Assembly: GCA_963666565.1 (NCBI GenBank)
Contig: OY762911.1
Location: 1,951,497 to 2,015,496, forward strand
Origin: Thermoanaerobaculia bacterium
GTDB lineage: Bacteria; Acidobacteriota; Thermoanaerobaculia; Multivoradales; Multivoraceae
Direction of reading: 5' to 3'
Length of the DNA: 64,000 nucleotides
The notes beneath the pieces are model-generated. The model saw nothing but the letters and a program-made list of their open reading frames with translations. It did no database searches and had not been told where the DNA came from. The position numbers and the translations under genes were made by a program. Below, piece by piece: positions 9,709 through 47,910 of the stretch (positions within the stretch are counted from its first letter, which is position 1; every line of letters starts with the position of its first letter).

Positions 9709-9996
9709 ATGACTCTGACCATAGAGCAACTGCGCGAGGAGCTGCATCGGGAACTGACCCCGATGCGCAAGGAGATTCGGGATCTGCGGACTGACGTGGC
9801 CGATCTCCGAGGGGAGATGGCCGACCTCAGAGTGGAAGTGGCCAAGCTCCCGACCAGGGACGACATGCGCGAACTGGTCCTGGACAAGACGAACGCCATG
9901 AAGGGCAATCTGCTCGCGTGGATTGCCGCTTCGGCCGTGGCCGTCACGGCTGCCCTGACCGCCGTGGTGTTTGGAATCGCCAAGCTCCTCGAGTAA
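9709..9996 (+). CDS. Small coiled-coil protein with a C-terminal TM helix (hypothetical)
   Basis: ATG start; heptad-like LREELHRELTPMRKEIRDLRTDVADLRGEMADLRVEVAKL, then a hydrophobic AWIAASAVAVTAALTAVVFGI segment. It lies divergent to the CarbopepD_reg gene and is followed by a solo REP hairpin. Confidence 0.45.
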   Translation: MTLTIEQLREELHRELTPMRKEIRDLRTDVADLRGEMADLRVEVAKLPTRDDMRELVLDKTNAMKGNLLAWIAASAVAVTAALTAVVFGIAKLLE

Positions 9997-10041
9997 CGGA
10001 GGCCCGGCGGCCGAGCGGGTGCTCGGTCGCCGGCGCCGGAT

Positions 10042-12360: not shown

Positions 12361-12523
12361 GGGCTCGGTACGCGGAGACGGGGTCGGCGGCGGTCGGCCG
12401 GACGTATGGGTTCGGCGGCTGCAGGGGCGCGTAGTTCGCGCCAGCGGGAACCGGCGCAGACTAGCAGGAGCGGACGGCGCCGAGCCGCAGCCGCGCGCGG
12501 TCTCTGCGGTAACGTCCGCCCCC

Positions 12524-13828
12524 ATGCCCGACGAACGGCAGCCCGACCTGTTGACGCTGGCCGAGCAGGCCTGGCGCGGCGAGCTCGACCTCCAGTTCGA
12601 GCACCACCCGGTGCACCGCTACTACCCGGGTTCCTGCCGGCTCGCCGACGGTCTGCTCGGCTTCAAGGGCATCGCCGGCTTCTACGTCATCGACAGCGGC
12701 GACGGCCTGGTGATGCTCGACGCCGGCCATCTGCTCGACGTGAAGCGCTGCTTCGAGGACGTGCGGCGGGAATGGCCGGATACGCCGGTCGTGGCCGCGA
12801 TCTACTCGCATCACCACGCGGACCATGTGTTCTCGGTCACCGCCTTCGACGCGGAGGCGGAAGATCGGGGCTGGCCGCGGCCGACCGTGTACGCCCACGA
12901 GCGGGTGCCGGCCCACTTCGACCGCTACCGGGCGACCCTGGGCTGGAACACGGCGATCAACCGCCGGCAGTTCGCGATCGACGCGCCGCACTACCGTTGG
13001 CCCGACAGCTACCGATACCCGGACGTCCTGTACCGCAGCAACCTGACCTTCCGGCGCGGGGAGCTGACCTTCGAGCTGACCCACGGCTGCGGCGAGACGG
13101 ACGACGTCACCTGGACCTGGATTCCGGAGCGCCGCATCCTGCACACCGGCGACCTGTTCATCTGGGCGGTGCCGAACGCGGGCAACCCGCAGAAGGTGCA
13201 GCGCTACGTCGGCGACTGGGCGGACAGCCTGGAGCGGATGCTGCCGCTCGGCGCCGAGATCCTGCTGCCGGGTCACGGCCTGCCGATCCTGGGCGCGGAC
13301 CGGGTGCGCCGGGCGCTGGACGACACCGCGCGCTACATGAGGTCGATCGAGGAGCAGAGCTTGGCCGCGATGAACCGGGGGCTGAGCCTCGACCGGGTGG
13401 TCCGGGCTGTGACGCCGCCGGCCGACCTGGCGGACGAGCCGTACTTGCAGCCGGTCTACGACGATCCGAGCTTCCTCGTGCGGATGGTCTGGCGGCGCTA
13501 CGGCGGCTGGTGGGACGGCGAGTTCGACACCGTGATGCCGGCCACGAAGAGTGAGCAGGCCGAGGCTTGGGTCGAACTCGCGGGCGGAGTCGAGCGGGTG
13601 GTCGAACGGGCGCTGGCGGCATCGTCGGAGGGCAGGCACGCCGTCGCCTGCCACCTGATCGAGGCGGCCCGGCACGCGGCGCCGGAGAGCGCCGAGGTCC
13701 ACGAGGCGCGCGCGACCGTCTACCGCGCCAACGCCGGGACGCAGGCGTCGTCGATGGCGCGCAACATCCTGAACCACGCGGCGTTGGCGAGCGACCGGGG
13801 CCGGCGGGATCTAGCCTCGGATGAGTGA
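12524..13828 (+). CDS. MBL-fold alkyl/aryl-sulfatase-like hydrolase (lacks the SCP2 C-terminal domain)
   Basis: HxHxDH motif (YSHHHADHVFS) plus a downstream alkylsulfatase dimerisation-like region (YLQPVYDDPSFLVRMVWRRYGGWWDGEF). ATG at 12524. The track ORF is extended upstream to 12077. Confidence 0.75.
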   Translation: MPDERQPDLLTLAEQAWRGELDLQFEHHPVHRYYPGSCRLADGLLGFKGIAGFYVIDSGDGLVMLDAGHLLDVKRCFEDVRREWPDTPVVAAIYSHHHADHVFSVTAFDAEAEDRGWPRPTVYAHERVPAHFDRYRATLGWNTAINRRQFAIDAPHYRWPDSYRYPDVLYRSNLTFRRGELTFELTHGCGETDDVTWTWIPERRILHTGDLFIWAVPNAGNPQKVQRYVGDWADSLERMLPLGAEILLPGHGLPILGADRVRRALDDTARYMRSIEEQSLAAMNRGLSLDRVVRAVTPPADLADEPYLQPVYDDPSFLVRMVWRRYGGWWDGEFDTVMPATKSEQAEAWVELAGGVERVVERALAASSEGRHAVACHLIEAARHAAPESAEVHEARATVYRANAGTQASSMARNILNHAALASDRGRRDLASDE

Positions 13829-31919: not shown

Positions 31920-34900
31920 TCACGGCGCCCTCGCCTGATCGTACGCCCGCCTGAACACGACCTCGGACATCCACCGCTTGAAGCCGTCGTTGTCCATGAA
32001 CTGCTTGAACAGCTCAGTGTCGTCCTTCATCACGTTCTGCATCGCGCGGAGCAGGGCCCGGTCGTGCTCGATGCGGGTGTTCTCGCGGTCGGAGTTCCGG
32101 CGAGCGTTGCGAAAGGCCGCGTCGGAGGCGACCCTGGCGGGAATGTCGAACGCGATCATCCGCTGGACGCGGTCTTCGTCCGCCCAATCATCCGCTGGAC
32201 GCGGTCTTCGTCCGCCCATTCGATGCCGCCGAAGTGGTCGTTGAACGCCTTGACGATGTTCGAGAGGTGGTCCAGTTCGGGTTCCGGCCGGTGGCCGTCG
32301 CCGGCGGGGGGCGTCGGCTCGACCTCGGCGTCCTCGTCGGGCAGGAGGATCTTCCGGATCGCCTGTTTCTCGGCCCGGTAGCTGTCCATGTCGACCGCGT
32401 CGAGGATGCCTCGCGCGAGATCCTCCTCCCGCGGCGCCGGCAGCTTCGGGATCAGGAAGTTCAGGAAGATCGACCGCTTCTCCCAGCCGGCGTTCGAGAA
32501 CGGGAGGATGGAGGAGAGGAAGCCGTAGGCGCGCGCGAACGCCTTGGCCTTTCCCTTGAAGTCGACCTGCCCGTCCTCGTCGAGTTCGCTCAGGTAGACC
32601 GCGACGCACTCGTCGAGGATCGGGTCGAGCCGGTCGCGCTCGGCGCCGTCCAGATAGCGCTCGACGAACAGGTCGACCTGCTCCGCCGAACAGACCTGCG
32701 CCGCGTCGAGGCCAGCCTGCAGGTCGTGCAGCCGGTCGGGGTCCGGCTCGTCGGCCAGGATCGTGCCGCGGTAGTAGTTCGCGAACGAGTCGCGGATGAT
32801 CTCCGTGTCGTTCAGGAAGTCGAGCACGAACACGTCGTGCTTGCCGGGGTGCGCCCGGTTGAGCCGCGAGAGGGTCTGCACCGCCTTGATGCCGGCAAGC
32901 GTCTTGTCGACGTACATCGTGTGCAGCAGCGGTTCGTCGTAGCCGGTCTGGAACTTGTCGGCGCAGACCAGGAACCGGTAGGGGTGTTCCCGGATCTTCG
33001 TCGCGATCCGGCTGGACGGGAAGCCGTTGAGCGAGGCTTCCGTGACCCTCGCGCCGCCGTATTCGTGCTCGCCCGAGAAGGCGACGATCGCCCGGTACGG
33101 GCTCTTCCTCGCGTCCAGGCAGTCGCGGATGGCGTGGAAGTACTGGATCGCGCGCTGGACGCCGTTCGTGACCACCATGGCCCGCGCCTCGCCGCCGATC
33201 TTGCGCGGCGCGGCGACCCGGTCGTGGAAGTGGTCCGCCACGATCTCGGCCTTCAGCCGGATGGCGTGGTCGTGCCCCTCGACGAAGCGCCGCAGCTTCC
33301 GCTGCGCCTTCTTGACGTCGAACTCCGGGTCGTCCTCGACGCTCTTTGCGAGCCGGTAGTAGCTCCTGACCGGCGTGTAGTGCTTCAGCACGTCGAGAAT
33401 GAAGCCCTCCTCGATCGCCTGCTTCATCGAGTAGGTGTGGAAGGCGCGGCGCCTGACCGTGCCGTCGGGTTGCGGTTCGGGAACTCCGAAGAGCTCCAGC
33501 GTCTTGTTCTTGGGTGTTGCCGTGAACGCGAAGTAGCTGGCGTTCGACAGCATCTTGCGCGACTCCATCAGGCGGTTGATCCGGTCCTCGTAGGTCTCCT
33601 CCTCGCCGCGGGCGCCGGCTTCGGAGAGGGCGCCCGAGACCGCGGCGCTGGTCCGGCCGCCCTGGCTTGAGTGGGCCTCGTCGATGACGATCGCGAACCG
33701 GCGTCCGCGCTGCTCGTTGCCGATGGCGTCCAGGACGTGGGGGAACTTCTGGATCGTCGTGATGACGATCTTCTTGCCGCCTTCGAGGAACTGGCGGAGG
33801 TCCGCCGAGCGGTCGGCGTGGCCGACGGTGGCGCCGACCTGCGCGTACTGCCTGATCGTGGCGTGGATCTGGCGGTCGAGAATGACCCGGTCCGTGACGA
33901 CGACGATGGAGTCGAAGACCGTGCCGCCGCCGCTTCGTCCCTGGGAGTTCGGGTCGCCGCCGCGCCCGTCCGGCCCGCTCGGTCGATGGTCCTCGGCCTC
34001 TTCGGCGCGCGGCTCGACGTCGCGGTTGCCGCCGCGCCGCTCGAGCCCGATCAGCCGGTGGGCCAGCCAGGCGATCGAGTAGCTCTTGCCGCTGCCCGCC
34101 GAGTGCTGGATCAGGTAGCGCCGGCCCGCGCCGTGCTCGGCCGCGTCGGCCAGGAGCCGGCGGACCACGTCGAGCTGGTGGTAGCGCGGCCAGATCTGCG
34201 TCTTCTTCTTCCGGCCCGTCTTCTCGTCCTTCGATTCGACGATCTGGGCGTAGTTCTCGACGATCTCCGTCAGGCTCTCACGAGTCAGGACCTCGCGCCA
34301 CAGGTAGTCCGCGGCCAGACCGTCAGGGTTGGGCGGGTTGCCGGCGCCATCGTTCCAGCCCCGGTTGAAGGGCAGGAACCAGGACGCCTTGCCTCGCAGG
34401 TGGGTGCAGAAGCGCACCTCCCGCTCGTCCGCCGCGAAGTGGACGATGCAGCGGCCGAACTCGAACAGCTTCTCCCGCGGGTTGCGGTCCTTCCGGTACT
34501 GCTCGACGGCGTCGCTGACCGTCTGCTTGGTCAAGCTGTTCTTCAGTTCGAACGTGACGACCGGCAGGCCGTTGACGAACAGCGCCAGGTCGAGCGCCAG
34601 TTGAGCCCGGTCGCCGCTGTAGCGAAGCTGCCGCGTGACGGTGAAGCGGTTCAGCTCGAAGCGTTGCCGCGCGGCCTCGTTGCCCTCCGACGGCGTGCCG
34701 TAGAACAGCTCCAGATCGTGCGCGCCGTGCCCGATGCCGTTCCGCAGCACGTCGATGGTCCCGCGCTTCGCGATCTCGCCCTGCAACCGGGCGAGGAACT
34801 TCCGCCGCGCCGGCCCGTCCTCGTCCAGGGCCAGGCCGTCCGCGGCGTCGGGCTGCGTGGCTTGGAGGAAGGCCGAGAGCTGGGTGAAATCGACGCAGTA

Positions 34901-35095
34901 GTTCCGGTCGTAGTCGCGGGGGTCGCCGGGGGTCCAGCCGGCGGTGGTGGGGGCCGTGGTGCGGGCGCTGCCGGAGGCGGGGCTCGGTTCGGCCGGTTGG
35001 GGGAGTTCGCCGGGCTTCGGCGGGTCGCAGGGGTGGCCGGTGAGGGCCGTGCAGATGAGGCGCTCGAGGCCGCGTTCGGACGTGTCGGTGGTCAC
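31920..35095 (-). pseudogene. hsdR: Type I restriction enzyme R subunit (HsdR), frameshifted about 75 codons before the native C-terminus by a 32-bp tandem duplication
   Basis: HsdR_N motifs (VVTFELKN), helicase motifs (SAGSGKSYS Walker A, DEAHSSQ motif II) and the C-terminal domain. ORF 32156..35095 ends ...EWADEDRVQRMIGRTKTASSG*. The native continuation ...WADEDRVQRMIAFDIPARVAS... to the stop at 31920 is in another frame (track ORF 31920..32609). Confidence 0.8.
32155..32218. repeat. 32-bp perfect tandem duplication (atcatccgctggacgcggtcttcgtccgccca x2) that frameshifts hsdR
   Basis: Direct reading: copies at 32155-32186 and 32187-32218. 32 is not a multiple of 3, and the duplicated peptide WADEDRVQRMI appears in both reading frames. 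Confidence 0.9.
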
Positions 35096-35134
35096 GTCGC
35101 GTCCGAAGACTCGGCAGGCGACCGGCCCGCTCGC

Positions 35135-36280
35135 TCAGCCGTCACGACCGGCCGCCTCGCGGCGCTTCCCCAGCATGTTCCGATACACCGTGTCGGAAGT
35201 CGCCTTGACGTCCTCGGTGATGTCCAGCAGCGATTCGTCCTGGCCGTCGTAGGCCCGGAGAGAGCCGACAGCGTCGCGCATGGCGCTGCGCGCTTGCAGA
35301 AGGGACACGAGGAAGCGCCGGTCCATCGGTTCGGTGGCCGCGTGCGCCTGGTGCAGGGCGTATCCGGCTGCCAGGAGTTCCCGTGCCTCTGCGTGCGGAA
35401 GGACTTCTCCGAGCCGTTTGATGTCGGGGTTCATCGCGTGGACCGCAGGCGGGATGTCGCCTTGCCTCGAGCCGTAGATCCAGAGGAGCACCTCTCGAAG
35501 ACAGTCCAGCTTCTCCGCGGGGACGGGGTCGGGCCGCGGTTCGTCCGGCGGCCAGGTACGTGCCAGCCCGAGGTACTCCCGGTACTGCGAACGCGAGAGG
35601 GCGACGTACAGATGAGCGAAGCTGAACTTCGGCGTGTAGCGGTCCTCGATGTCGAACAGGCCCTCCCTGACTGCCTGCTCCAGTACGTAGACGGCGGACA
35701 CCATCCGCTTGACCGCGCCGTGGCGGTCGCCGAGCGCGCTGGCGATTCGCTCGATGCCGACGTCCCCTTCCCGGTACCAGTCCGTCGCGAACCGCGCCTT
35801 GGCGTAGGCGCTCCACTTGGCGGCGCCGTTGATGTGCTTGAAACCGATGAACGCCCGCGCATCCTCGCGCTTCGCGACCCGATAGACCGTCACCTCGTCG
35901 AGGGTGTGGCGGAGCGAATCCCGGACCTCGGGCACCGTGATCTGGAGCTTCTTCTCGGGGAAGATCCTGCCCGCCAGCCTGCTCGCCAACTCCGGCTCCC
36001 GCAAGAGCCTGAGCGCTGCGAGGCGGCGATTCCCCTCAAGGACGATCAACTCGTCGCTGCCGGCGGCGCCCATCGCGACCAGCGGTTCGATGTCGAGGTA
36101 GCCGTTCGTCGAGATCGACTGAAGCAGTTCGTCGAGTCCCGCGGAGTAGAGCCGGGCGATGATCGACTCCTCCGTGGCTCGCCTCCCTCGATCCGGGAAT
36201 CTCGGAGCCTCGCGGTCCAGGCGGAGTCGCTCGACGGGGACCTTCGCCGCCGTCCCAACTCGTGACTGCGCCTCGTGCAT
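35135..36280 (-). CDS. ParB/Sulfiredoxin-fold (ParB-like nuclease domain) protein, encoded 40 bp upstream of hsdR on the same strand
   Basis: ParB N-terminal domain signature (DELIVLEGNRRLAALRLL; compare the ParB GERRxRA box), then about 250 aa of helical sequence. ATG at 36280. The track ORF 35135..36352 is slightly longer. Confidence 0.6.
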   Translation of the reverse strand: MHEAQSRVGTAAKVPVERLRLDREAPRFPDRGRRATEESIIARLYSAGLDELLQSISTNGYLDIEPLVAMGAAGSDELIVLEGNRRLAALRLLREPELASRLAGRIFPEKKLQITVPEVRDSLRHTLDEVTVYRVAKREDARAFIGFKHINGAAKWSAYAKARFATDWYREGDVGIERIASALGDRHGAVKRMVSAVYVLEQAVREGLFDIEDRYTPKFSFAHLYVALSRSQYREYLGLARTWPPDEPRPDPVPAEKLDCLREVLLWIYGSRQGDIPPAVHAMNPDIKRLGEVLPHAEARELLAAGYALHQAHAATEPMDRRFLVSLLQARSAMRDAVGSLRAYDGQDESLLDITEDVKATSDTVYRNMLGKRREAAGRDG

Positions 36281-36399
36281 GACGCCGGCTATCTTAGACG
36301 CAGGGGCCCGTGGGTGTCGCGGTGGCCAGTGAACCCGGCTCCAGGTCGGCAAGTGCCCAGGGCGTCACCTTTGGCCCGGCAGCTTCCGCAGACGAGAAG

Positions 36400-39300
36400 A
36401 TGTGCATGGACTTGGAGACTGCACCCCGCGGTTCAACGGTGGTGTACTGTCTCGCCTTCCGTGACCTTGGAGGAACGAGGTGGGGGTGCTTGCCGGCGCG
36501 CCGGCGAACTTTCCGGCCCGAGTACGTCGAGATGCCGTTACCAGGAGGGCCCGCTGCCAAGCTCGGTATCCGCTACGAGAAGTGGTGGACGCTCTCGGAG
36601 TTCGTTCGAATGCTCCACGGAGAGACAGACTCGATTCGGCTGGAGGAGCCCGGTCTTGATGCAGCAGAGTTCGTTGTGAGGAACGGCTCGCAGCGCGAGT
36701 TTCATCAGGTAAAGCGCCGCAACCCGAGCGGGAAGTGGAGCTTGCCAGCGCTTAAGTCCGAAGGTGTTCTTCAAGCGATGGGGCGGAGGCTGGCCAACAG
36801 CGCCGACTGCTTTGTCTTCGCATCAAGCTCTGACGCGCCGGAGCTCTCCGATCTGTGTGACACCGCTGGCGGATCAGCTTCAATCGAAGAGTACCGACGG
36901 GTCTTCCTCAAAGCCGACTCGCGCCGAGAGCCCTTTGACGAGCTGCGCCGAGCGTGGGGCTGCAGCCTTGAGGAGACGTTCAATCGGCTGCGGCGAATCG
37001 AGGTCAGTACGATCAACGAGCGCGAACTGCGAAAGACCGTCGAACGAGGGTTGCGGGCACTCTTCATCTCGAACCCGGCCGACGTGGAGAAGACGCTACT
37101 GGCGATGGTCGATGACTCCTTGCATCAGACCCTTACACGCCAGGGACTTAGGGAGACCCTCACCCGTAGCGGCTACCAGATGCGGCACCTCAACAACCCA
37201 GAGGACGCGGCCGGGGCCGTACGACGAGCGACCGATGATCACTACCTCGTGAGGGCCCAGAAGCGGCTCATTCAAGAGCGACTCGTTCCAACGGACGCCG
37301 CAAGGGTGGTGCTTTCTCGCCTGGGCGAAACGTCGACGGACCTTGTCCTGGTTGGGAAGGCCGGCGTCGGCAAGACGGCCTGTATCGTTGAGGTAGTGCG
37401 CGCCTTGCGAGAGCAGCGCGGTATGCCAGTCTTGGTCTTTCGCCTCGATCACCATACGTCGGCACGGTCCACTAGAGAGATTGGCCAGCAGTTGGAACTG
37501 GAGGAGTCGCCCGCGTTCGTTCTGGCCGCCGCAGCGGAGTCCGCGAACCGGTCTGGCGTTCTGATCGTGGATCAGTTGGACGCGGTCAGCACGATGCCTG
37601 ACAGGGGGTCCGGCGCTCTTGATGTGGTTGAGGCGCTGCTTGACGAGACCCGAGGCCTTCGGGCGCGGGTTCCCGTTCACACGATAGTCGTGAGTCGGGA
37701 GTTCGATTGGGAGCACGACCCGCAGCTTAGGGGGCTTGCCGCCAAGTCCGCGGGGCCGGTCAAGGTCACGGAGTTCCATGTGGCCCAGGTCAAGGAGATC
37801 CTGGCGGACGCTGGTTTCGATCCGACACTCTTCGGGGAGAATCAACTCCAGGTCCTACGGCTCGCGCAGAATTTGTCGCTGTTCTTGGACACCGGTTTCT
37901 CTGCCTCCTGCGCTCCGGCGTTCCGCACGGCCAAGCACCTGTTCGACCGATACTGGTCCTACAAGCAGCGAGTGGTTGACAGGAGAGCGGGGAATCTAGC
38001 GGGCCGCTGGACCGAGATCGTGCGGAGGGTCTGCGACGAGATGACGTCGTCTCAGCGTCTCGCGGTTCCGAAGGAGAGGCTCGACGAAGTGCCAGAGGAC
38101 TATCTGCAACAGATGGCGTCGGAGGGCGTGCTGACGTTCGACGGCCACTGCTACGGCTTCGGGCACGAGAGCTTCTTCGACTATTGCTCCGCGCGTCTGT
38201 TTTGCGGCCGGTCGGAGCGACTTGTGTCGTTGTTGACGGGTGCAGAGCAGCATCTTTTCCGACGTTCCCAGGTGCGCCAGGTTCTGGTCTACCTTCGCGA
38301 CGAGGACTTCCCCAGGTACGTGGAAGAGGTTGGTGAGCTCCTCTCGGATGAGGGGATTCGCGTCCACATCAAGCATCTTGTGTTCGCGCTCTTGGCTGGT
38401 GTCGAGGAGCCGAGGGCTGAGGAGTGGGCGATCTGGGAGACGTGGATCGGACCAGAACTGAAGGCGATCGAGGCCGATGCACAAGGTCAGAACGCGTTGT
38501 CGGCCCTCGCGTGGCGGTCGTTCTTCGTTGCAGGCTCGTGGTTCCGCATCGCCGATGACCGCGGGAAGGTCGAGGAGTGGCTTGGCGGCCGTGGAGACCA
38601 GCTCGGCGACTTGGCGGTGAGATACCTCTTGGCGCATCATCGCCACTCGCCTGATCGAGTCTCGGCTCACCTCAATCCGTATGTCGACTCCGGCGGTCGG
38701 TGGCCCCAACGCTTTCTGTACTTCATGGGGCGCGTCCAGCACGGCGCCAGCAGATCACTCTTCGAGCTGTTTCTCCGTTTGGTGGACAACGGTGTACTGG
38801 ACGATGGCCGGGCGATGTTCGCCTCCAACGAGACGTTCTGGGACATGCTCCGGGATCTGAAGGAGGATCGGCCGGAGTGGATTGCTGAGGCGCTCGCCCA
38901 CCGGCTCCGACGCCGGCTACGACTCCGCCTTGAGGACGATTCGGACGCCTATCCAGGACGGCTCCTGGGCAACCACGGCTCGGGCTCCCGCGTGTTTGTG
39001 AAGTCGGCTGCGAACGCTCCCGCTGCGTATGTGAAGCACGTCCTGCCGGCGGTGCTTGAGGTCGTCGATTCGACGGTTACGGGGGAGAAACCGCCGAGGC
39101 GGGATACGGTTTGGTTTCTCCTTCACGAGTTCAGCCATCTCAGTGCCGACGAGACATGTCTGAAGTGCCTCGGCCAAGCGCTGGCGACGGTGGCTCAGGT
39201 CGATAGAAGATCGGCAAGAGAGCTGATTGCCGACTTGCGAGGGCGAGATAGCCACACGGCGAACTACCTGCTATTGGCGCTCTATCGGGGGGAGCCAACC

Positions 39301-41046
39301 CGGTATGCCGACGAGGCAATGTCACTGCTGTGTGAGGAACCCTGGCGACTTGAATGCGGCGCAGGCGGTAACGGATGGTGGTACGCGATGGAGACGATCC
39401 GGGCGACCTTTCCTCACTGTTCTGCGCCCACACGTGCGAGGCTCGAGGCACTGATTGTCGGACATGCCGACTGGTTTGAGCGGACCAAGGAAGGCCGACA
39501 ATCGGAGGGTCGTGCTCGGTTCGCCCTCCTTTCGGCAATCCCTGCGGATCTCCGCGGCAGGCAAGCGCATAAGCACTTTCAGGAGTTGGAGCGGAAGTTC
39601 GGGGAACCTCCGGGGAAACCACGCGGGCCGGAGGGCGGTCTCGTTGGGCCTCCGATACCTGCCGAGTCCACCGTCAAGATGACGGATCAGCAGTGGCTTC
39701 GGGCCATCGCGAAGCACTCCGCCGAGTGGTCGCCTCGCCGTTATTCACGGAACATACAGAAGGGCGGTGCGCGGGAATTGGCGGGAACTCTGGTCGAACG
39801 CACCCAGGAGGAACCAGAGCGGTTCGCTCGTCTGTGCCTGCGTTTCCCGGCCGATGCGAACCCCGCCTATCTCGACGGCGTCTTGTCTGGCCTGAAGGAG
39901 GCTTCGATAGCGAATGAGTTGAAGCTCCAGGTCTGCCGCAAGGCGTTCGGTGAGGCTTTCGATTACTGCGGTCAGTCGGTAGCGGACGTCCTCGGTGGCC
40001 TTGAGTCTCCAGTCCCGGCGGAGGCCATGGGGATGCTTGACCGGCTTGCGACTGAGCACAGTGATCCCAGTTCGGAGGCGTGGCAGAAGAAGACGGCGGA
40101 CGGTCGTCGAGTCTTCAACGGCGACATCTACTGGAGCGGTATCAACTCGACACGTGGACAGACAGCCCTTGCGGTCGCCAAGCTCATCTCTGCGGACGAC
40201 TCGTGCCTGACGCCGTTCCGGCCGACCCTTGATCGGATGGTCGAGGACGAAAGCCCGGCCGTCGTTTCTTGCGTCATTGGCACGCTCTTGGCCGTTGCCT
40301 ATCACGAGCCCAAACTCGCGCTGCGGCTCCTCGGAAGAACGAACCTGTCCGAGGTCCGGCTGCTCGCTACTCGGCACGCTCGACATCTTCTTCACGGCAC
40401 CCTGCATCGGAACTTCGACCAGGTCCGCCCGTTTCTCAAGCGCATGATTCAGTCGTCGGAACCGGAGGTCTGCCAAGCAGGCGCTCGCTTGCTCAGCGTC
40501 GCGGCGCTGAGCCACGAAGGAGCGGCGGAGCTTGTAGCGCGGTGTCTCGGGGGCAGCGCCGCCCACCGGCTCGGTGTGTGCGAGGTGGCCGCTGCCAACG
40601 TGGCCGACTCGGAGTGTGGGGCGTGGTGCGAGCGAACCCTCTCGGAACTGTTCGATGACGCCGATGCCAATGTCCGAAAAGAGGCTGCGACCTGCTTCCG
40701 GCATGTCGAGAACGAACCGCTCGAAGAGTACGCGGACCTGGTCCAGGCGTTCTGTAGCAGCAGGGCCTATCGCGACGACCCGTTCTGGCTGCTCGACGTC
40801 TTGGAGACGGTGCGAGGTCGACTGCCGGGCGTAACGATCATGGCCTGCGAACGGTTCTTCGACCGATTCGACGGGCTTGAGCAAGGCCGGACTCGTGGGC
40901 TCCGTACGATTGTCAAGCTGATCTTCCGGGCGTACCAGCAGTACGAGCAAGAGAGTTGGGGTCAGCGGTCACTGGATCTCATCGACAGACTCTGTCTTGA
41001 AGGCATCTACGAGGTCGGAAAGGAACTCGATCACTTTGATCGGTAG
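36400..41046 (+). CDS. Giant P-loop NTPase (NACHT/STAND-like) with an N-terminal putative PD-(D/E)xK-like domain and about 1000 aa of C-terminal alpha-helical repeats; candidate antiphage Avs-like protein
   Basis: Walker A LVLVGKAGVGKTACIV, then Walker B VLIVDQLDAV (hhhhDxxD, NACHT-like), about 70 aa downstream. The N-terminal region carries a D...(E/Q)xK pattern (LEEPGLDAAEFVV...REFHQVK). The long C-terminal region is ARM/HEAT-like helical with no enzymatic motif. Start is ATG at 36400 or 36406, or GTG at 36310. Confidence 0.6.
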   Translation: MCMDLETAPRGSTVVYCLAFRDLGGTRWGCLPARRRTFRPEYVEMPLPGGPAAKLGIRYEKWWTLSEFVRMLHGETDSIRLEEPGLDAAEFVVRNGSQREFHQVKRRNPSGKWSLPALKSEGVLQAMGRRLANSADCFVFASSSDAPELSDLCDTAGGSASIEEYRRVFLKADSRREPFDELRRAWGCSLEETFNRLRRIEVSTINERELRKTVERGLRALFISNPADVEKTLLAMVDDSLHQTLTRQGLRETLTRSGYQMRHLNNPEDAAGAVRRATDDHYLVRAQKRLIQERLVPTDAARVVLSRLGETSTDLVLVGKAGVGKTACIVEVVRALREQRGMPVLVFRLDHHTSARSTREIGQQLELEESPAFVLAAAAESANRSGVLIVDQLDAVSTMPDRGSGALDVVEALLDETRGLRARVPVHTIVVSREFDWEHDPQLRGLAAKSAGPVKVTEFHVAQVKEILADAGFDPTLFGENQLQVLRLAQNLSLFLDTGFSASCAPAFRTAKHLFDRYWSYKQRVVDRRAGNLAGRWTEIVRRVCDEMTSSQRLAVPKERLDEVPEDYLQQMASEGVLTFDGHCYGFGHESFFDYCSARLFCGRSERLVSLLTGAEQHLFRRSQVRQVLVYLRDEDFPRYVEEVGELLSDEGIRVHIKHLVFALLAGVEEPRAEEWAIWETWIGPELKAIEADAQGQNALSALAWRSFFVAGSWFRIADDRGKVEEWLGGRGDQLGDLAVRYLLAHHRHSPDRVSAHLNPYVDSGGRWPQRFLYFMGRVQHGASRSLFELFLRLVDNGVLDDGRAMFASNETFWDMLRDLKEDRPEWIAEALAHRLRRRLRLRLEDDSDAYPGRLLGNHGSGSRVFVKSAANAPAAYVKHVLPAVLEVVDSTVTGEKPPRRDTVWFLLHEFSHLSADETCLKCLGQALATVAQVDRRSARELIADLRGRDSHTANYLLLALYRGEPTRYADEAMSLLCEEPWRLECGAGGNGWWYAMETIRATFPHCSAPTRARLEALIVGHADWFERTKEGRQSEGRARFALLSAIPADLRGRQAHKHFQELERKFGEPPGKPRGPEGGLVGPPIPAESTVKMTDQQWLRAIAKHSAEWSPRRYSRNIQKGGARELAGTLVERTQEEPERFARLCLRFPADANPAYLDGVLSGLKEASIANELKLQVCRKAFGEAFDYCGQSVADVLGGLESPVPAEAMGMLDRLATEHSDPSSEAWQKKTADGRRVFNGDIYWSGINSTRGQTALAVAKLISADDSCLTPFRPTLDRMVEDESPAVVSCVIGTLLAVAYHEPKLALRLLGRTNLSEVRLLATRHARHLLHGTLHRNFDQVRPFLKRMIQSSEPEVCQAGARLLSVAALSHEGAAELVARCLGGSAAHRLGVCEVAAANVADSECGAWCERTLSELFDDADANVRKEAATCFRHVENEPLEEYADLVQAFCSSRAYRDDPFWLLDVLETVRGRLPGVTIMACERFFDRFDGLEQGRTRGLRTIVKLIFRAYQQYEQESWGQRSLDLIDRLCLEGIYEVGKELDHFDR

Positions 41047-41176: not shown

Positions 41177-42550
41177 TCAGGGGAGCGCAACGGCCGTGTG
41201 GCGCACGTCAAGCTTCCCGGTGACCGCGTCGGCAGTCACTCGTGCGCGGAACTCGCTGAGAAGGGCGATGTGGCGGTGCGTGCGGTCGATTGCGGCTGCG
41301 TGTCGGTCCGTGACTTTCCGGCAGAACTGCGCGATGGCGACCTGCTCGGGCGGCGGTGGCAGGCAGACGCGCAACCGCGAGACGATTTCGGCATTCAGGT
41401 TGGACATCGTAGAGCCGACCGATGCGAGTTCGAGTGCATCGCGGGTGCGTGACGAGTTCAGAACGAGAAGGAGGTAGTCGGGCGAACAGACCGTCTTTCT
41501 TGCCCGGAGTCGCAGGCTGCCAGTACCGCAGATCCAGCCTGCTTGGGCGGAACGCACCAGGGCGGAGCGACCGACTTCGCCGCGCCGGGCGATGACGACG
41601 TCGCCAGTAGCGAGTCGGTGCCTTGAGAGTTCCGCCGCCTTCCGTCCGGTGACGGCTATGGAGCGATCTGGCGCTATCCTGCCTTCGCTCAGGTGCGACG
41701 GATTGATGACGGGAACGCCGCCGTCGATGTACTCGTCGGCATGGAGTTGACTACCGAACGGCCCGGTCTGAATCGAGTTCGACGCTGTGCCAAGTGCAAG
41801 TTCAGGCCAGTGCGCCGGCACTTCCGTCAGCCATTCGACCTCCGATTCCTTGTATTCGAGATAGGGCTGGCCGGTCCGGACGTCGATCTGGCCGGTGACG
41901 GCCTGATGCACGATGGCCTGTTGCTGCTCCTCCAGCAGCCCGATCAGCTTCTCCTTCTTCCGAATGGCCCGACGGATGTGCCGGTCGATGTAGTCGAGAA
42001 AGCGGGCGATGGCGGTCTGTTCGGCTAGCGGAGGCAGCGTTAGCGGCAGGTCTCGCCAGCGTTCGGTTGGAAGCCTGCGCGTGCCATGCCCTGCTTCGTC
42101 GATCAGAGGAAACAGGCCGTCGCGAGCGCAAGCGAGGAACGACGCCAGATAGGCCGCGTTGAGCGCGGGACAGGGGCGTAGGGCTTTCATGTCCTGGTTG
42201 ATCGTTACCGGCGAGGTCGTTCTGGCGATGGGCACTCTGCGGGCAAGGATCATTCCGCGGACGACCATGAGCACGGCGGGAGGCTGAACCAACCGAAGTG
42301 CGGTTTCGGCGAGTGCGGCGTCTGTGACCCGCACACGCGAATCGCCGATCACCATGGTCTTCATGTCCTTCGGCGTGACCCATGGAATGTCGCCGTTCCA
42401 GAAGCGACCGTCTTCCATGCTGGGCGTCATTCCTCCCGAGATCGAGGCGCATTGCCGGAGCTTCCTCATCTTCCAATGCGCCGGTACCTCGCCCAGCCAC
42501 TCCACGCCGGAGTCCTCGTACTCGCTGTAGGCCTCCAGCGCGTGCGTCAT
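41177..42550 (-). CDS. hsdS: Type I restriction-modification specificity subunit (HsdS), two target-recognition domains
   Basis: Two TRDs are separated and followed by conserved coiled-coil regions (LAEQTAIARFLD..., PPPEQVAIAQFC...). The ATG at 42550 overlaps the upstream stop (ATGA). Confidence 0.85.
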   Translation of the reverse strand: MTHALEAYSEYEDSGVEWLGEVPAHWKMRKLRQCASISGGMTPSMEDGRFWNGDIPWVTPKDMKTMVIGDSRVRVTDAALAETALRLVQPPAVLMVVRGMILARRVPIARTTSPVTINQDMKALRPCPALNAAYLASFLACARDGLFPLIDEAGHGTRRLPTERWRDLPLTLPPLAEQTAIARFLDYIDRHIRRAIRKKEKLIGLLEEQQQAIVHQAVTGQIDVRTGQPYLEYKESEVEWLTEVPAHWPELALGTASNSIQTGPFGSQLHADEYIDGGVPVINPSHLSEGRIAPDRSIAVTGRKAAELSRHRLATGDVVIARRGEVGRSALVRSAQAGWICGTGSLRLRARKTVCSPDYLLLVLNSSRTRDALELASVGSTMSNLNAEIVSRLRVCLPPPPEQVAIAQFCRKVTDRHAAAIDRTHRHIALLSEFRARVTADAVTGKLDVRHTAVALP

Positions 42551-42903
42551 TCCTCGGACTGCTCGGCAGGTACCTTGGGTTCAATGGCTGGCTCGCTCTC
42601 GCCATGCCACCTTGTGCGTTCCATGAATCGGCGGAGGATGGGGTCCGTTGGGCGATAGTCCCGTATCCAGGCGTTGATCTCGCCGTTGGTCATGTCTTCG
42701 AACTTCCTGCTGAGGCGTTTCCGTTGCTCCCGCTCGTAGGCGACGCAGTCGAAGTCGTTCTCCTCTCTCTTGGCCGTCACTCCACCGGGGCCTTTCTGAC
42801 GCCCGAGTCCGCTACGAGGCGAAGCGGAAGGAGCTTGGCTCTCGGCGACCGCTCCCAGATACGACGGAGGATGGGGTCCGTGATCTCCCGGTTGTTCCTC
42901 CAC
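42547..42903 (-). pseudogene. Remnant of the PIN-gene 3' region (tail domain only), translationally coupled to hsdS
   Basis: ...FDCVAYEREQRKRLSRKFEDMTNGEINAWIRDYRPTDPILRRFMERT is homologous to the C-terminal tails of the PIN copies. Its stop overlaps the hsdS ATG. Confidence 0.35.
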
Positions 42904-43511
42904 TCCACCTGCTCCTCGGGAGTCATGGCTTCTAACTTCCGACTGATGCGGTCCCTCTGCTCGCGCACGAAGCCGACGCAGTCGAAGCTCTTGTCGTTCG
43001 GGTCGCGGAAGTTCTCGCCCAGGATGGCCGGAGGCTCGTACATCTTGATCCGGGGATGACCGAGTTCCCGGTTGACGGCGTCGAACTTGGGCCCGCGGCG
43101 GAAGTTCAGCAGGTGCTTGTAGTTCCAGCTCGCAAGCATGTCGACGTTTGCGAGCGTGGCGAAGGCGACGTGCAGGGCGGCGGGTCGCGCGGCCGGGTCC
43201 AACGCGCCCGCCTCGATGTAGCGGTCGGCGAGTTCCTCGGCTGCTCCCGACGGCTCCAGGAGCTCCGAGTGCTCCCGCGGCACCGTACCTAGCAGCGCTC
43301 TCGCGGCCTCGGTCGCCGCGTCCAACTCGCCCACGACCGCGGCCGACAGGACGAGGGTCATGTCGGCGGCACGGAACCCCTCGAACAGAGCCCGGGACGA
43401 CTCCCTGATCCAGTACTTCTCGTCCTCGCAGGCGGAGAACACGGAGGAGTCGACGTACACGCGGGGCGTTTCCGGCCAGGACGGAACCGGGTACGTCGTC
43501 TCAGCGGTCAT
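42777..43511 (-). CDS. PIN-domain nuclease-like protein with a C-terminal extension (distal copy C)
   Basis: PIN signature: N-terminal Asp (RVYVDSSVF), the acidic residues, and the C-terminal T/SxNxKH-type motif (NVDMLASWNYKHL). The ATG overlaps the stop of an hsdM C-terminal fragment. Confidence 0.6.
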   Translation of the reverse strand: MTAETTYPVPSWPETPRVYVDSSVFSACEDEKYWIRESSRALFEGFRAADMTLVLSAAVVGELDAATEAARALLGTVPREHSELLEPSGAAEELADRYIEAGALDPAARPAALHVAFATLANVDMLASWNYKHLLNFRRGPKFDAVNRELGHPRIKMYEPPAILGENFRDPNDKSFDCVGFVREQRDRISRKLEAMTPEEQVEWRNNREITDPILRRIWERSPRAKLLPLRLVADSGVRKAPVE

Positions 43512-45176: not shown

Positions 45177-45902
45177 TCAGGCCGGGAGATCGTGATCCTG
45201 GGAGGGCGTGTCCTGCACGCTGGCATCGCGATCCCGCAGGCGCTCGACCAGGCGCCGCAGCTTCGGGTCTGTCGGTAGGTAGTTCCGCGTCCAGGCACCG
45301 ATCTCTTCGCTGGTCATGCCTTCGAACTCCTTGCCGAGCTTCTTCCGTTGCTCGCGCATGAAGCCGACGCAGTCGAAGCTCTTGTCATTCGGGTCGCGGA
45401 AGTTCTCGCCCAGGATGGCCGGAGGCTCGTACATCTTGATCCGGGGATGACCGAGTTCCCGGTTGACGGCGTTGAACCTGGGCCTGCGGTAGACGTTCAG
45501 GAGGTGCTTGTGGTTCCAACTCGCGAGTGTGTCGACGTTTGCGAGCGTGGCGAAGGCGACGTGCAGGGCGGCGGGTCGCGCGGCCGGGGCCACCGCGCCC
45601 GCTTCGATGTAGCGGTCGGCGAGTGCCTCGGCTGCTCGCGACGGTTCCAGAAACTCCGAGTGCTCCCGCGGCACCGTACCTGGCAGGGCTCTTGCGGCCT
45701 CGGTCGCCGAGTCCAACTCGCCCGCCACCGCGGCCGAGAGGACGAGGGTCATGTCGCCGGCACGGAACCGCTCGAACAGAGCGCGAGACGACTCCCTGAT
45801 CCAGTACTTCTCGTCCTCGCAGGCGGAGAACACGGAGGTGTCGACGTAGATGCGGGGTGTTTCCGGCCAGGGCGGTACCGGGTACGTCGTCTCAGCGGTC
45901 AT
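45177..45902 (-). CDS. PIN-domain nuclease-like protein with a C-terminal extension (proximal copy A, coupled to hsdM)
   Basis: The same PIN motifs as copy C (IYVDTSVF...NVDTLASWNHKHL), with a distinct C-terminal tail (...GAWTRNYLPTDPKLRRLVERLRDR). The ATG overlaps the hsdM stop. Confidence 0.65.
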   Translation of the reverse strand: MTAETTYPVPPWPETPRIYVDTSVFSACEDEKYWIRESSRALFERFRAGDMTLVLSAAVAGELDSATEAARALPGTVPREHSEFLEPSRAAEALADRYIEAGAVAPAARPAALHVAFATLANVDTLASWNHKHLLNVYRRPRFNAVNRELGHPRIKMYEPPAILGENFRDPNDKSFDCVGFMREQRKKLGKEFEGMTSEEIGAWTRNYLPTDPKLRRLVERLRDRDASVQDTPSQDHDLPA

Positions 45903-47910
45903 CGTCCACCTCCTTCGACGGACCGGGCACCATGCCGCCCATGATCTCGGCCAGCAGACCCTCGGTCTGCGTCTCCAGGGCCAGGATGTCGGCCTGGATC
46001 TCCGCCAGCGGCCGCATTGGCTCGGGCTTGTAGAAGTAGCGGTTGAAGCTGATCTCGTAGCTGGTCTTCACGGTTCTGGAGTTGTACCACGCATCCGGGG
46101 CCCAGGGCAGGACCTCGCGGCGCAGAAAGGCCTCGATGCCGCCGTCCTCCTGGAGCGGGATCTGCTCGGTGTCGCGGAGGCTCGTGTCCGGCTCGTACTC
46201 GACGACGGCGGTCCGGCCATCGACCTTCGCCTCGAACAGGCCGCGCAGCGGGTCGGCGGCGACGCCCCGCTTGTGGACCTTCCGGATCACCGGCGGCGCC
46301 TCTTCGCCCTCGCCGCGGACGCCAGTGGCCTTGAGTCCGCGGATCTCGGCGGCCTTGTAGGCGCGGCACCCGTCGATTCCCTCGATGCGGAGCGGCCGCT
46401 CGACGGTGACCTTCCAGTAGCCGAAGGCCTCGTTGTCGAAGACCTTGCTTTCCTCGGTCTCCTCGAAGGCGAGGAAGGCGTCGCAGATGCGGGCGATGTC
46501 CTCGTCGCCGAGTTCGCAGTTCTTCTTGCCGAGGTTCTTGCGCAGCGGCTGGAACCGCTTCGTGGCGTCGATGAGCTGCACCTTGCCCCGGCGGTGCTCC
46601 GGCTTGCGGTTCGTCAGCACCCAGACGTAGGTGGCGATGCCGGTGTTGTAGAACATGTTGAGCGGCAGGGCGACGATCGCCTCCAGCCAGTCGTTCTCGA
46701 CGATCCAGCGGCGGATGTTGCTCTCGCCCTGGCCGGCGTCGCCGGTGAAGAGGGAACTGCCGTTGTGGACCTCGGCGATCCGGCTGCCGAGCGGCGTGTT
46801 CCGCTTCATCTTGGCGAGCTTGTTGGCCAGGAAGAGCATCTGCCCGTCGCTGCTGCGGGTGACGAGGGAGAACTCCGGGTCGCCGCCGTGCTCGATCAGG
46901 AACCGCGGGTCGCGCATGTCCTTCTTGCCGCCCATGCGCGCGAGGTCCGTCTTCCAGCTCTTGCCGTAGGGCGGGTTGGAGAGCATGAAGTCGAACTCGC
47001 GGGCCGGGAAGGCGTCGTTCGAGAGCGTGGAGTGCTCCGGCCCGCCGACGATGTTGTCGGCGGCCGCTCCCTCGCCCTTGAGGAGAAGGTCGGCCTTGCA
47101 GATGGCGTAGGTCTCGGCGTTGATCTCCTGGCCGAAGAGGTGCGTGGAGACCTCCTTGCCGCGCTCGGCGGCGAGCGACTGGAGCACGTCCTCGGCCACG
47201 GTGAGGATGCCGCCGGTGCCGCAGGCGCCGTCGTAGAGGGTGTAGGTGGCGGACCGGAGTCGGTCGGCCACGGGCAGGAAGACGAGGTTCGCCATCAGCT
47301 TGACCGCGTCGCGCGGCGTGAAGTGCTCGCCGGCCTCCTCGTTGTTCTCCTCGTTGAAGCGGCGGATCAGTTCCTCGAAGATCGAGCCCATGCCGTGGTT
47401 GTCGAGGCCGGGGTGCTTCACGCCGCCGTCGCCGTCCGTCACCGGCTCGGGGCCCAGGTTGATGTCGGGCGAAGTCAGCTTCTCGATCAGCGTGCCGAGC
47501 GCGTCGGCCCGCGAGAGCCGCGGGATCTGGTTGCGGAACTCGAAGTTCTCGAGGATGTCCTGGACGTTCGGAGAGAAGCCGTCGAGCCACGCCTCGAAGT
47601 CGGCCCGGAGCCGCTGCCGGCCGGCGCGGGCGCGCAGGTCGCGCAGCGTGTAGCTGGACGTGTTGTAGAAGTCCTGCTTCGCCGCGTCCCGCAGGGTGGC
47701 GTCCTGGTCGACGATCTCGAGTTCGTCGAGAGTTGCCTTCACCTGCAGGACGTGCTGCTTGCGCGGCTCCAGCACCGCGTCGAGCCGCCGCAACAGGGTC
47801 ATCGGCAGGATGACGTCGCGGTACTTGCCGCGGACGTAGAGGTCGCGGAGGACGTCGTCGGCGATGCCCCAGATGTAGCCGGTGATCCAGCTCAGGGAGG
47901 CGTTGTCCAC
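45892..47910 (-). CDS. hsdM: Type I restriction-modification N6-adenine DNA methyltransferase subunit (HsdM)
   Basis: HsdM_N (IWGIADDVLRDLYV...DVILPMTLLRRLD), an AdoMet motif (YDGACGTGG) and the catalytic NPPY (LSNPPYG). Confidence 0.9.
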   Translation of the reverse strand: MDNASLSWITGYIWGIADDVLRDLYVRGKYRDVILPMTLLRRLDAVLEPRKQHVLQVKATLDELEIVDQDATLRDAAKQDFYNTSSYTLRDLRARAGRQRLRADFEAWLDGFSPNVQDILENFEFRNQIPRLSRADALGTLIEKLTSPDINLGPEPVTDGDGGVKHPGLDNHGMGSIFEELIRRFNEENNEEAGEHFTPRDAVKLMANLVFLPVADRLRSATYTLYDGACGTGGILTVAEDVLQSLAAERGKEVSTHLFGQEINAETYAICKADLLLKGEGAAADNIVGGPEHSTLSNDAFPAREFDFMLSNPPYGKSWKTDLARMGGKKDMRDPRFLIEHGGDPEFSLVTRSSDGQMLFLANKLAKMKRNTPLGSRIAEVHNGSSLFTGDAGQGESNIRRWIVENDWLEAIVALPLNMFYNTGIATYVWVLTNRKPEHRRGKVQLIDATKRFQPLRKNLGKKNCELGDEDIARICDAFLAFEETEESKVFDNEAFGYWKVTVERPLRIEGIDGCRAYKAAEIRGLKATGVRGEGEEAPPVIRKVHKRGVAADPLRGLFEAKVDGRTAVVEYEPDTSLRDTEQIPLQEDGGIEAFLRREVLPWAPDAWYNSRTVKTSYEISFNRYFYKPEPMRPLAEIQADILALETQTEGLLAEIMGGMVPGPSKEVDDDR

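Follow-up and report, generated by a model that had tools for sequence, protein, structure and literature searches.

The window analysed here is a 64-kb stretch (64,000 nucleotides, nt) of contig OY762911.1 from a Thermoanaerobaculia bacterium, and the target gene lies on its minus strand at 35135..36280, between hsdS and hsdR of a type I restriction-modification (R-M) locus. The gene encodes a 381-aa protein of the ParB/Noc/KorB fold, a full-length member of the uncharacterised family PHROG 3694, whose members are usually followed by a second protein and a DNA methyltransferase in an R-M-like module. Both partners are missing from the window, and the solo gene has been kept by selection in a group of related genomes. 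Coordinates are those within the window, and L001, L084 and similar labels denote numbered comparison loci from other genomes. The target family (PHROG 3694) is called A, and its unknown partner protein of ~330 aa is called B. The combined reading, by which the target is an orphaned subunit kept for a local regulatory or accessory DNA-binding role, is given an even chance of being correct; its parts on identity and orphan status are much more secure than the functional part and very probably hold. The gene, the domains of its product and its upstream element are as follows:

35135..36280, minus strand: target coding sequence (A), ATG at 36280, stop codon at 35135-35137, 381 aa, full-length PHROG 3694 member
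35873..36250, minus strand: ParB-CTPase-fold N-terminal domain, residues ~11-136, with Box I LLQSISTNGYLDIEPLV and Box II (Foldseek E 5e-5, hhalign, PADLOC)
36023..36037, minus strand: Box II / P-motif equivalent, E82-G83-N84-R85-R86 (ParB counterpart GERRxRA)
35813..35845, minus strand: conserved loop G146-F-K148-H149-I-N151-G152-x-x-K-W156, at the position of ParB Box III (ENLQR)
35531..35872, minus strand: central helical region, residues 137-250, probable divergent ParB-type helix-turn-helix (HTH) DNA-binding domain
35138..35530, minus strand: C-terminal helical domain, residues 251-381, ending in two long helices (319-341 and 349-380)
36287..36299, minus strand: AT-rich upstream element GTCTAAGATAGCC, 13 nt, 7 nt upstream of the target ATG

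Family assignment and fold of the target protein

As an earlier note on this DNA had proposed, 35135..36280 is one intact open reading frame (ORF); the strand, which that note left unstated, is the minus strand. The codon-position GC contents of the gene (0.70/0.48/0.85) are as expected for a real coding gene in a genome of ~70% GC. The motif LIVLEGNRRLAALRLL, quoted in the earlier note, corresponds to residues 78-93. The protein has no match to a Pfam family at E<=0.01, PF02195 included. A search of NCBIfam returned sub-threshold noise only (SerK, ATP synthase gamma, parB_part), and sequence and profile searches of the PDB gave nothing for either A or B. The match to PHROG 3694 is full-length, with residues 13-364 of the target on profile positions 9-360 (of 376) at E 1e-66; neither this family nor PHROG 3984 or PHROG 14650 has an assigned function. 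A total of 1689 homologues of A are present in a 90%-clustered collection, typically 375-380 aa long, 50-92% identical and spread across phyla, and 169 clusters at 50% identity match with E<=1e-30. Many of the closest relatives appear to derive from sponge-associated metagenome-assembled genomes, for example those of Candidatus (Ca.) Multivorans, Vicinamibacterales, Binatia, Caldilineaceae and Ca. Synechococcus spongiarum.

Among the models of the PADLOC library, PD-Lambda-5_A gave many matches to the target, the best at 2e-18 and always within profile positions ~5-161 of ~466. PD-Lambda-5 is composed of a ParB-like subunit A of ~466 aa and a Dam-like methyltransferase as subunit B; it is an experimentally validated defence system and was called a compact 'RM+Abi' system by its discoverers (Vassallo et al. 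2022, PMC9519451). A genuine PD-Lambda-5 pair is present at L052:12159-14497, where the A profile is matched at 4e-156 over positions 1-462 and the B profile (Dam-like methyltransferase) at 8e-120. Membership of the target in PD-Lambda-5_A was rejected, as only N-terminal profile positions are matched and the downstream gene is hsdR instead of PD-Lambda-5_B. The two proteins share a homologous ParB-type N-terminal domain (E 2e-18, profile positions 5-161), which is the N-terminal third of the target, whereas the C-terminal two thirds are unrelated. Set against the full-length match of the true pair, this makes the target a sister of PD-Lambda-5_A and not a member. DndB and DUF262 (GmrS, SspE; GmrSD) are, like the target, ParB-fold proteins within DNA-modification or restriction systems. 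Membership in either was rejected for lack of any Pfam or PADLOC match and on the motif, which is EGNRR in the target and DGQHR or DGQQR in those proteins.

An AlphaFold2 model of the target, built on 47 homologues, has a mean predicted local distance difference test score (pLDDT) of 81.7. The best Foldseek matches of this model in the PDB are CDP- or CTPγS-bound, C-terminally truncated ParB, Noc and KorB (E 5e-5 to 1e-3, probability 1.0), with sulfiredoxin and the serine kinase SerK further down the list. Comparison of the target profile with Bacillus subtilis Spo0J by hhalign gave a weak match (E 0.069) yet a motif-by-motif correspondence. In this alignment KVPVERLRLDRxNPR pairs with EIKIADLRPNPYQPR, Box I LLQSISTNGYLDIEPLV pairs with LKESVLQHGILQPLIV and Box II VLEGNRRLAALRL pairs with IVAGERRFRAAKL, placing EGNRRLAA of the target opposite GERRFRAA of Spo0J. 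The ParB/Srx fold assigned to the N-terminal domain in the earlier note is borne out by the agreement of Foldseek, the Box I and Box II alignment and the N-terminal PD-Lambda-5_A matches. The term nuclease domain, used in the same place, is not: there is no match to a nuclease family or structure, and the closest folds are those of the CTP-switch proteins ParB, Noc and KorB.

E82, G83, R85 and R86 of Box II do not vary in the 47-sequence family alignment, and N84 hardly does. The counterpart of ParB Box III (ENLQR) in the target is IGFKHINGAAKW, which is family-invariant but different, the equivalence being drawn by inspection; G146, K148, H149, G152 and W156 of this loop are invariant in the same alignment. 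Residues 145-156 have pLDDT values below 50 in the model, and because the loop is nonetheless invariant it is a candidate ligand or catalytic loop. The nucleotide pocket of A is probably retained but altered.

In the model the whole of residues 137-380 is helical, in agreement with the long helical region described before. The earlier note saw no partition-protein HTH in this region. Constructs of ParB, Noc and KorB that span the N-terminal domain together with the HTH DNA-binding domain do align with the full-length model, and a divergent ParB-type HTH DNA-binding domain is likely, if unproven, on this modelling. When the C-terminal half was modelled alone (pLDDT 84.9), ParB, Noc, KorB and an isolated ParB DNA-binding domain were again at the top, at E about 1 only. 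The last ~130 residues, for which no structural match was obtained, possibly form a dimerisation or partner-binding domain.

The reading of the target as a genuine plasmid or chromosome partition ParB, or as a remnant of one, is effectively refuted. The ParB N-terminal fold and the probable HTH would fit it, and one homologue is annotated as 'ParB/RepB/Spo0J family partition protein'. The conserved Box I and Box II and the order of an N-terminal, a helical DNA-binding and a C-terminal helical domain are shared with ParB/Spo0J, Noc and KorB. The target differs from these proteins in having GFKHxNGxxKW in place of Box III ENLQR, in an unrelated C-terminal domain, and in that neither ParA nor a recognised parS, NBS or OB site accompanies the gene. 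Against the ParB model TIGR00180 (parB_part) the target reaches 15.7 bits where 58.45 are required, and no LG(R/K)GL motif for ParA binding is present in the N-terminus MHEAQSRVGTAAKVPVE. The absence of parA stated in the earlier note holds for any ParA/Soj-like gene in the whole window. That note would have taken homologues consistently next to parA and plasmid replication genes as the mark of a partition protein; a ParA-like gene is in the flanks of only 3 of 158 related loci. The constant neighbours of the family are instead B and a methyltransferase, and a B homologue follows even the record annotated as a partition protein.

The usual module and its loss in the window lineage

The partners of the family were determined by clustering all ORFs around 80 species-representative genome loci, followed by searches with hidden Markov models (HMMs). 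B follows A in 72 of the 80 loci, with an A-B overlap of 4 nt in most of those that carry B, so that the two are taken as translationally coupled, and in viral contigs from IMG/VR it is immediately downstream of full-length A in 37 of 38. B corresponds to phrog_3984 / 14650 and has no match in Pfam, NCBIfam, PADLOC or the PDB; its 783 relatives are all unnamed or 'hypothetical'. The residues D19, E22, R66, Y74-P75, D191, D195, Q215, K225, R275 and R277 (alignment numbering) are invariant in B, even across the members from P2-like phages. The D..D..Q..K spacing might be that of a divergent PD-(D/E)xK-type site; it has neither structural nor profile support and no claim is made for it.

A DNA methyltransferase is usually the next gene after B, and its class varies. 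The partner is an N6_N4_Mtase in about 47 loci and a Dam-like methyltransferase in others, while P2-like phages of E. coli, Yersinia and Pseudomonas carry a convergent C5 methyltransferase. An example of the module is found in Escherichia phage vB_EcoM-12474III, whose gp04-gp05 are A and B. At least 10 loci have a type III Mod gene (PDLC03632) whose end lies less than 70 nt upstream of A, as if these A-B-methyltransferase modules had been added to type III R-M operons; Ca. Multivorans-type genomes have the module between hsdS and hsdR. Judged by gene order and homology, the family looks like a restriction-type module with A and B as the constant core and an exchangeable methyltransferase. PD-Lambda-5 likewise occurs in P2-like prophage hotspots and defence islands, and the complete A module resembles it in being paired with a DNA methyltransferase. 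The A family differs in its extra obligate partner B and in the varying class of the methyltransferase. A literature search on the A-B(-methyltransferase) module, including ParB-like proteins in anti-phage roles, found no description, and a search for PDC-M38 found nothing. The module is an R-M-like system with a ParB-fold subunit, sister to PD-Lambda-5 and previously undescribed in the literature and libraries searched.

Some of the comparison loci show further arrangements. The type III Mod genes (~950-1090 aa) stand before A in L003, L013, L019, L022, L027, L030, L033, L062, L063 and L075 (~9930-10000), and at these ten loci a helicase-like gene of ~1015 aa often precedes the Mod gene. L051, L052 and L056 (e.g. 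L052:9950-14500) carry a genuine PD-Lambda-5 pair, a 466-aa ParB-like protein and a Dam-like methyltransferase, directly downstream of the A-B pair, so that two paralogous ParB-fold systems are stacked in an operon-like array. Among copies of A that lack B, the next gene encodes a UvrD-like helicase in L049 (11248-13407) and L069 (11246-12913); in L019 an AAA_21 (AbiEii-type) ATPase (11531-12742) is found beside an IS1595 transposase, and the copy in L045 is flanked by a DDE transposase. These four B-less copies are either partner swaps or disruptions.

The target is homologous over its full length to PHROG 3694 of the PHROG 3694-PHROG 3984/14650 module, and the window differs from the module in having neither B nor an adjacent methyltransferase. 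B was not found in the window by tblastn or HMM, and tblastn with the N6_N4 methyltransferases of the family gave a chance-level match only, Dam-like methyltransferases not having been searched for there. No remnant of B or of the methyltransferase was detected in the window or in six related orphan loci. There is no methyltransferase beside the target, the nearest being hsdM, 9.6 kb away. The earlier note had raised hsdR and the giant nucleoside triphosphatase (NTPase) next to the target as possible recurrent partners. Neither has that standing in the family, whose partners are B and the methyltransferase; adjacency to hsdR is limited to one clade, and the NTPase occurs in only 2-3 of the genomes of that clade.

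A solo copy is likewise found in the closest relatives (L084, L085, L087, L089, L001 and L002; 68-92% identical), where the type I locus is syntenic with that of the window and shares its housekeeping neighbours (SDF, DJ-1, Sod_Cu and DUF3604). L005, L011 and L023 carry A, B and a methyltransferase in the same slot between hsdS and hsdR. The solo copies form a monophyletic clade (Thermoanaerobaculia, Ca. Multivorans-like) in all 100 bootstraps of a neighbour-joining tree, with L005/L023 as their sister group in 97 of 100. Given this monophyly and sister position, the simplest history suggested by the sequences is that B and the methyltransferase were lost by one deletion in the common ancestor of the orphans.

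All seven solo copies are open over a tree length of 1.26 synonymous substitutions per site (dS), for which the neutral chance is about 2e-21 when the creation of stop codons alone is counted, and smaller with indels. The ratio of nonsynonymous to synonymous substitution rates (dN/dS) is 0.34 among the orphans (range 0.29-0.50), compared to 0.14 in complete modules and 0.16-0.23 in the adjacent hsdR; the relaxation extends to all three domains of A, and the ratio is well below 1 in each. Complete modules have 39 positions conserved at >=95%; every orphan has kept 32 of them, including Box II and the GFKHxNG loop, while N25 and L28 of the N-terminal NPR motif and A355 have shifted, N25 and L28 being changed in the closest orphans. 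From the intact frames over 1.26 dS and the relaxed but purifying selection, the solo A reads as neither a fresh pseudogene nor a gene under its original constraint, and as keeping a function that needs neither B nor the methyltransferase. A functionless remnant near loss, with the frame open by chance or for the sake of hsdR promoter or translation signals, is rather improbable. It would agree with the loss of both partners, the raised dN/dS, the changes at N25 and L28 and the frameshift already present in hsdR of the same operon (see below); it is opposed by the seven intact copies, by a dN/dS well below 1 in every domain and by the retention of the Box II residues and the loop.

Proposed role of the solo subunit

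The target is best explained as a ParB/Noc/KorB-fold subunit of an R-M-like module, in which an N-terminal nucleotide-switch domain is followed by a probable HTH DNA-binding region and then by a helical C-terminal domain. In the complete module A would bind DNA as a nucleotide-gated sensor or clamp, B would be the effector and the methyltransferase would mark self DNA; by analogy with PD-Lambda-5, A would direct or license B against DNA not marked by the methyltransferase. In the window lineage one ancestral deletion would have removed B and the methyltransferase, leaving A alone between hsdS and hsdR. The solo protein has most likely been retained as a nucleotide-dependent DNA binder and local regulator of island promoters, in the manner of KorB or DndB, or alternatively as a looser accessory to the adjacent restriction system. 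The fold and motifs, the family and its usual partners, their loss, the monophyly of the orphans and the selective retention are demonstrated by the comparisons above; nucleotide and DNA binding, the parts played by A, B and the methyltransferase and the present role of the solo gene are inferred. KorB is a precedent for a ParB-fold clamp as a transcriptional regulator, DndB is a ParB-like regulator of the dnd phosphorothioate modification operon, and GmrSD/SspE (type IV restriction) provide the precedent for a ParB-fold NTPase coupled to a nuclease partner. The retention of the orphans argues for a DNA-binding or regulatory role that is separable from killing.

The upstream element GTCTAAGATAGCC is identical in the window, L084, L087, L001, L002, L005, L011 and L023 despite a dS of 0.4-1, and is thus shared by solo and complete Multivorans-type copies in a background of 70% GC. 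The -10-like TAAGAT within it stops 10 nt short of the ATG, and a Shine-Dalgarno sequence is lacking; on these grounds the element is a plausible candidate promoter of a leaderless or very short-leader transcript; alternatively, it may be a protein-binding site. A consensus scan of 34900-36700 for sigma-70 promoters and intrinsic terminators found nothing. An inverted-repeat search of 35000-36600 found a single imperfect 13-nt repeat, located at the hsdR start.

Several points weigh against a regulatory or accessory DNA-binding role of an orphaned subunit. The division of labour between A, B and the methyltransferase is drawn by analogy. The exchange of ParB Box III for another invariant loop makes CTP-type switching uncertain, and the HTH matches are non-significant (E about 1) when the C-terminal half stands alone. 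A conserved palindromic operator was looked for near the target and not found. The dN/dS of the orphans, 2-2.5 times that of complete modules, indicates that the original function has been partly released, and slow decay is possible on the most recent branches. Also, the frameshift of hsdR in this genome makes a currently active local system less arguable.

The target ends shortly before the hsdR start on the same strand, as stated in the earlier note, with a spacer of 39 nt to the GTG at 35095. The two genes are plausibly co-transcribed in the window and also in L084, which has a spacer of the same length. As RNA, the A-hsdR spacer folds no better than shuffled sequence does (z = 0.64). The coupling is not conserved, as a PIN toxin-antitoxin pair intervenes in L085 and L087 and a 94-aa ORF in L089. 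The arrangement bears on the possibility that A has been co-opted by the type I system and acts physically with HsdR and/or HsdMS, so that it loads, targets or gates HsdR while HsdM provides the self-marking. This is unlikely. All eight orphan copies do lie between hsdS and hsdR, only 39 nt and no detected terminator separate A from hsdR in the window and L084, and A has been kept by selection in the absence of B. Elsewhere the family is often found on ATP-dependent R-M operons (the type III Mod loci above), and other B-less copies precede a UvrD-like helicase or an AAA_21 ATPase. However, complete modules fill the same slot in L005, L011 and L023, so that the position is inherited and not newly gained; the intervening genes in L085, L087 and L089 show that the coupling is not fixed; the window has a frameshifted hsdR next to an intact A; and in the same genome pairs A has 2-3 times the dS of hsdR, a difference that suggests separate histories. 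A wider form of the proposal is quite unlikely: solo A would be a nucleotide-gated clamp recruited to target, load or license HsdR, and the A-B family a sensor-plus-effector cassette for type I and type III operons that swaps methyltransferases.

A stand-alone defence or abortive-infection protein, for example a phage-activated ParB-fold NTPase toxin or a nuclease, is very unlikely. ParB-fold domains do serve as effectors elsewhere, as in the ToxB ATPase toxin (bioRxiv 10.64898/2026.05.05.722872), and the target lies in a defence island, is under selection and has its own promoter-like element. Yet members of the family are almost never solo, as seen from the counts for genome loci and viral contigs given above; selection was relaxed after the loss of the partners, the opposite of what is expected for a self-sufficient effector; there are no nuclease motifs or matches; and some B-less copies adjoin transposases, which suggests disruption. 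The earlier note had suggested an independent defence gene or a co-factor. The defence context stands and both roles are possible, but an orphaned subunit of a three-gene module fits the evidence better.

The gene marks a widespread, uncharacterised two-protein core of A and B, with at least ~170 clusters at 50% identity covering A over its full length. The methyltransferases that accompany this core are interchangeable, and its sites are hotspots of P2-like prophages, the position behind type III Mod genes and the interior of type I loci. An account of how it works would add restriction-like immunity to the known uses of the ParB nucleotide-switch fold, which are chromosome segregation and the control of transcription, and the versions in E. 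coli phages (e.g. vB_EcoM-12474III gp04-gp06) make the module directly testable. The significance of the window alone is moderate, as it holds one solo subunit beside a frameshifted hsdR. The orphan clade makes a modest but real evolutionary point, being a natural experiment in which a ParB-fold subunit keeps a selectable function without effector and methyltransferase.

The type I locus and neighbouring genes

Read along the minus strand, the order of the locus is hsdM, two unknown ORFs, hsdS, an inverted P-loop/HEAT gene, the target and hsdR. The features other than the target are:

45892..47910, minus strand: hsdM (HsdM_N and N6_Mtase; synteny)
45177-45902, minus strand: ORF of 241 aa between hsdM and hsdS, overlapping the hsdM stop
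42777-43511, minus strand: ORF of 244 aa between hsdM and hsdS
41177..42550, minus strand: hsdS (Methylase_S; synteny)
36310..41046, plus strand: large P-loop and HEAT-repeat gene, 1578-codon ORF (AAA_16/AAA_22, weak NACHT, PDC-M54A)
32156..35095, minus strand: hsdR-like ORF of 979 aa (HSDR_N, ResIII/SWI2_SNF2, T1R_D3; TIGR00348 E 6.5e-53) with a frameshifted C-terminus
32155-32186 and 32187-32218, minus strand: perfect 32-bp tandem duplication TGGGCGGACGAAGACCGCGTCCAGCGGATGAT, two copies, which frameshifts hsdR

The description of hsdR as disabled is right in the sense of a frameshift, as the 32-bp tandem duplication costs the gene its last ~68 codons. When one copy of the duplication is removed, hsdR becomes an ORF of 1047 aa that ends at 31920, with the same length as in the closest relative L084; the duplication is absent from L084 and L001. 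From what is known of type I enzymes, the loss of the ~68 C-terminal residues of HsdR should impair its assembly with the methyltransferase core, provided that the duplication is not an assembly or population variant. The duplication may be a genuine inactivation or an on/off variant that can revert, or else an artefact of assembly or of the population. At synonymous sites A has diverged 2-3 times as far as the adjacent hsdR in the same pairs of genomes (window, L001, L002 and L005); between the window and L002, for example, dS is 0.76 in A and 0.34 in hsdR. Either the slot between hsdS and hsdR swaps alleles between lineages, or the codon constraint on hsdR is much stronger.

The large P-loop gene is divergent from the target, as noted before. 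Its GC content is 0.63 in surroundings of ~0.70, and among the PADLOC candidates PDC-M54A is matched at 5e-16. Its earlier naming as a STAND/NACHT protein is weakly supported by a NACHT match (E 0.0029), which is below the Pfam cut-off, and AAA_16/AAA_22, HEAT and PDC-M54A match as well. Homologues at the same position were found only in L084 and L087/L088, and by its composition and distribution the gene is best read as a separate insert in the variable hsdS-hsdR slot, with no standing as a conserved partner of the target. Translation probably begins ~170-220 nt past the first in-frame start, as the L087 homologue is called at 1503 aa.

The ORFs of 241 aa and 244 aa have no match in Pfam, NCBIfam or PADLOC. 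L085, L086 and L087 have ORFs of 241-242 aa at the position of the 241-aa ORF of the window, a similarity of place and length.

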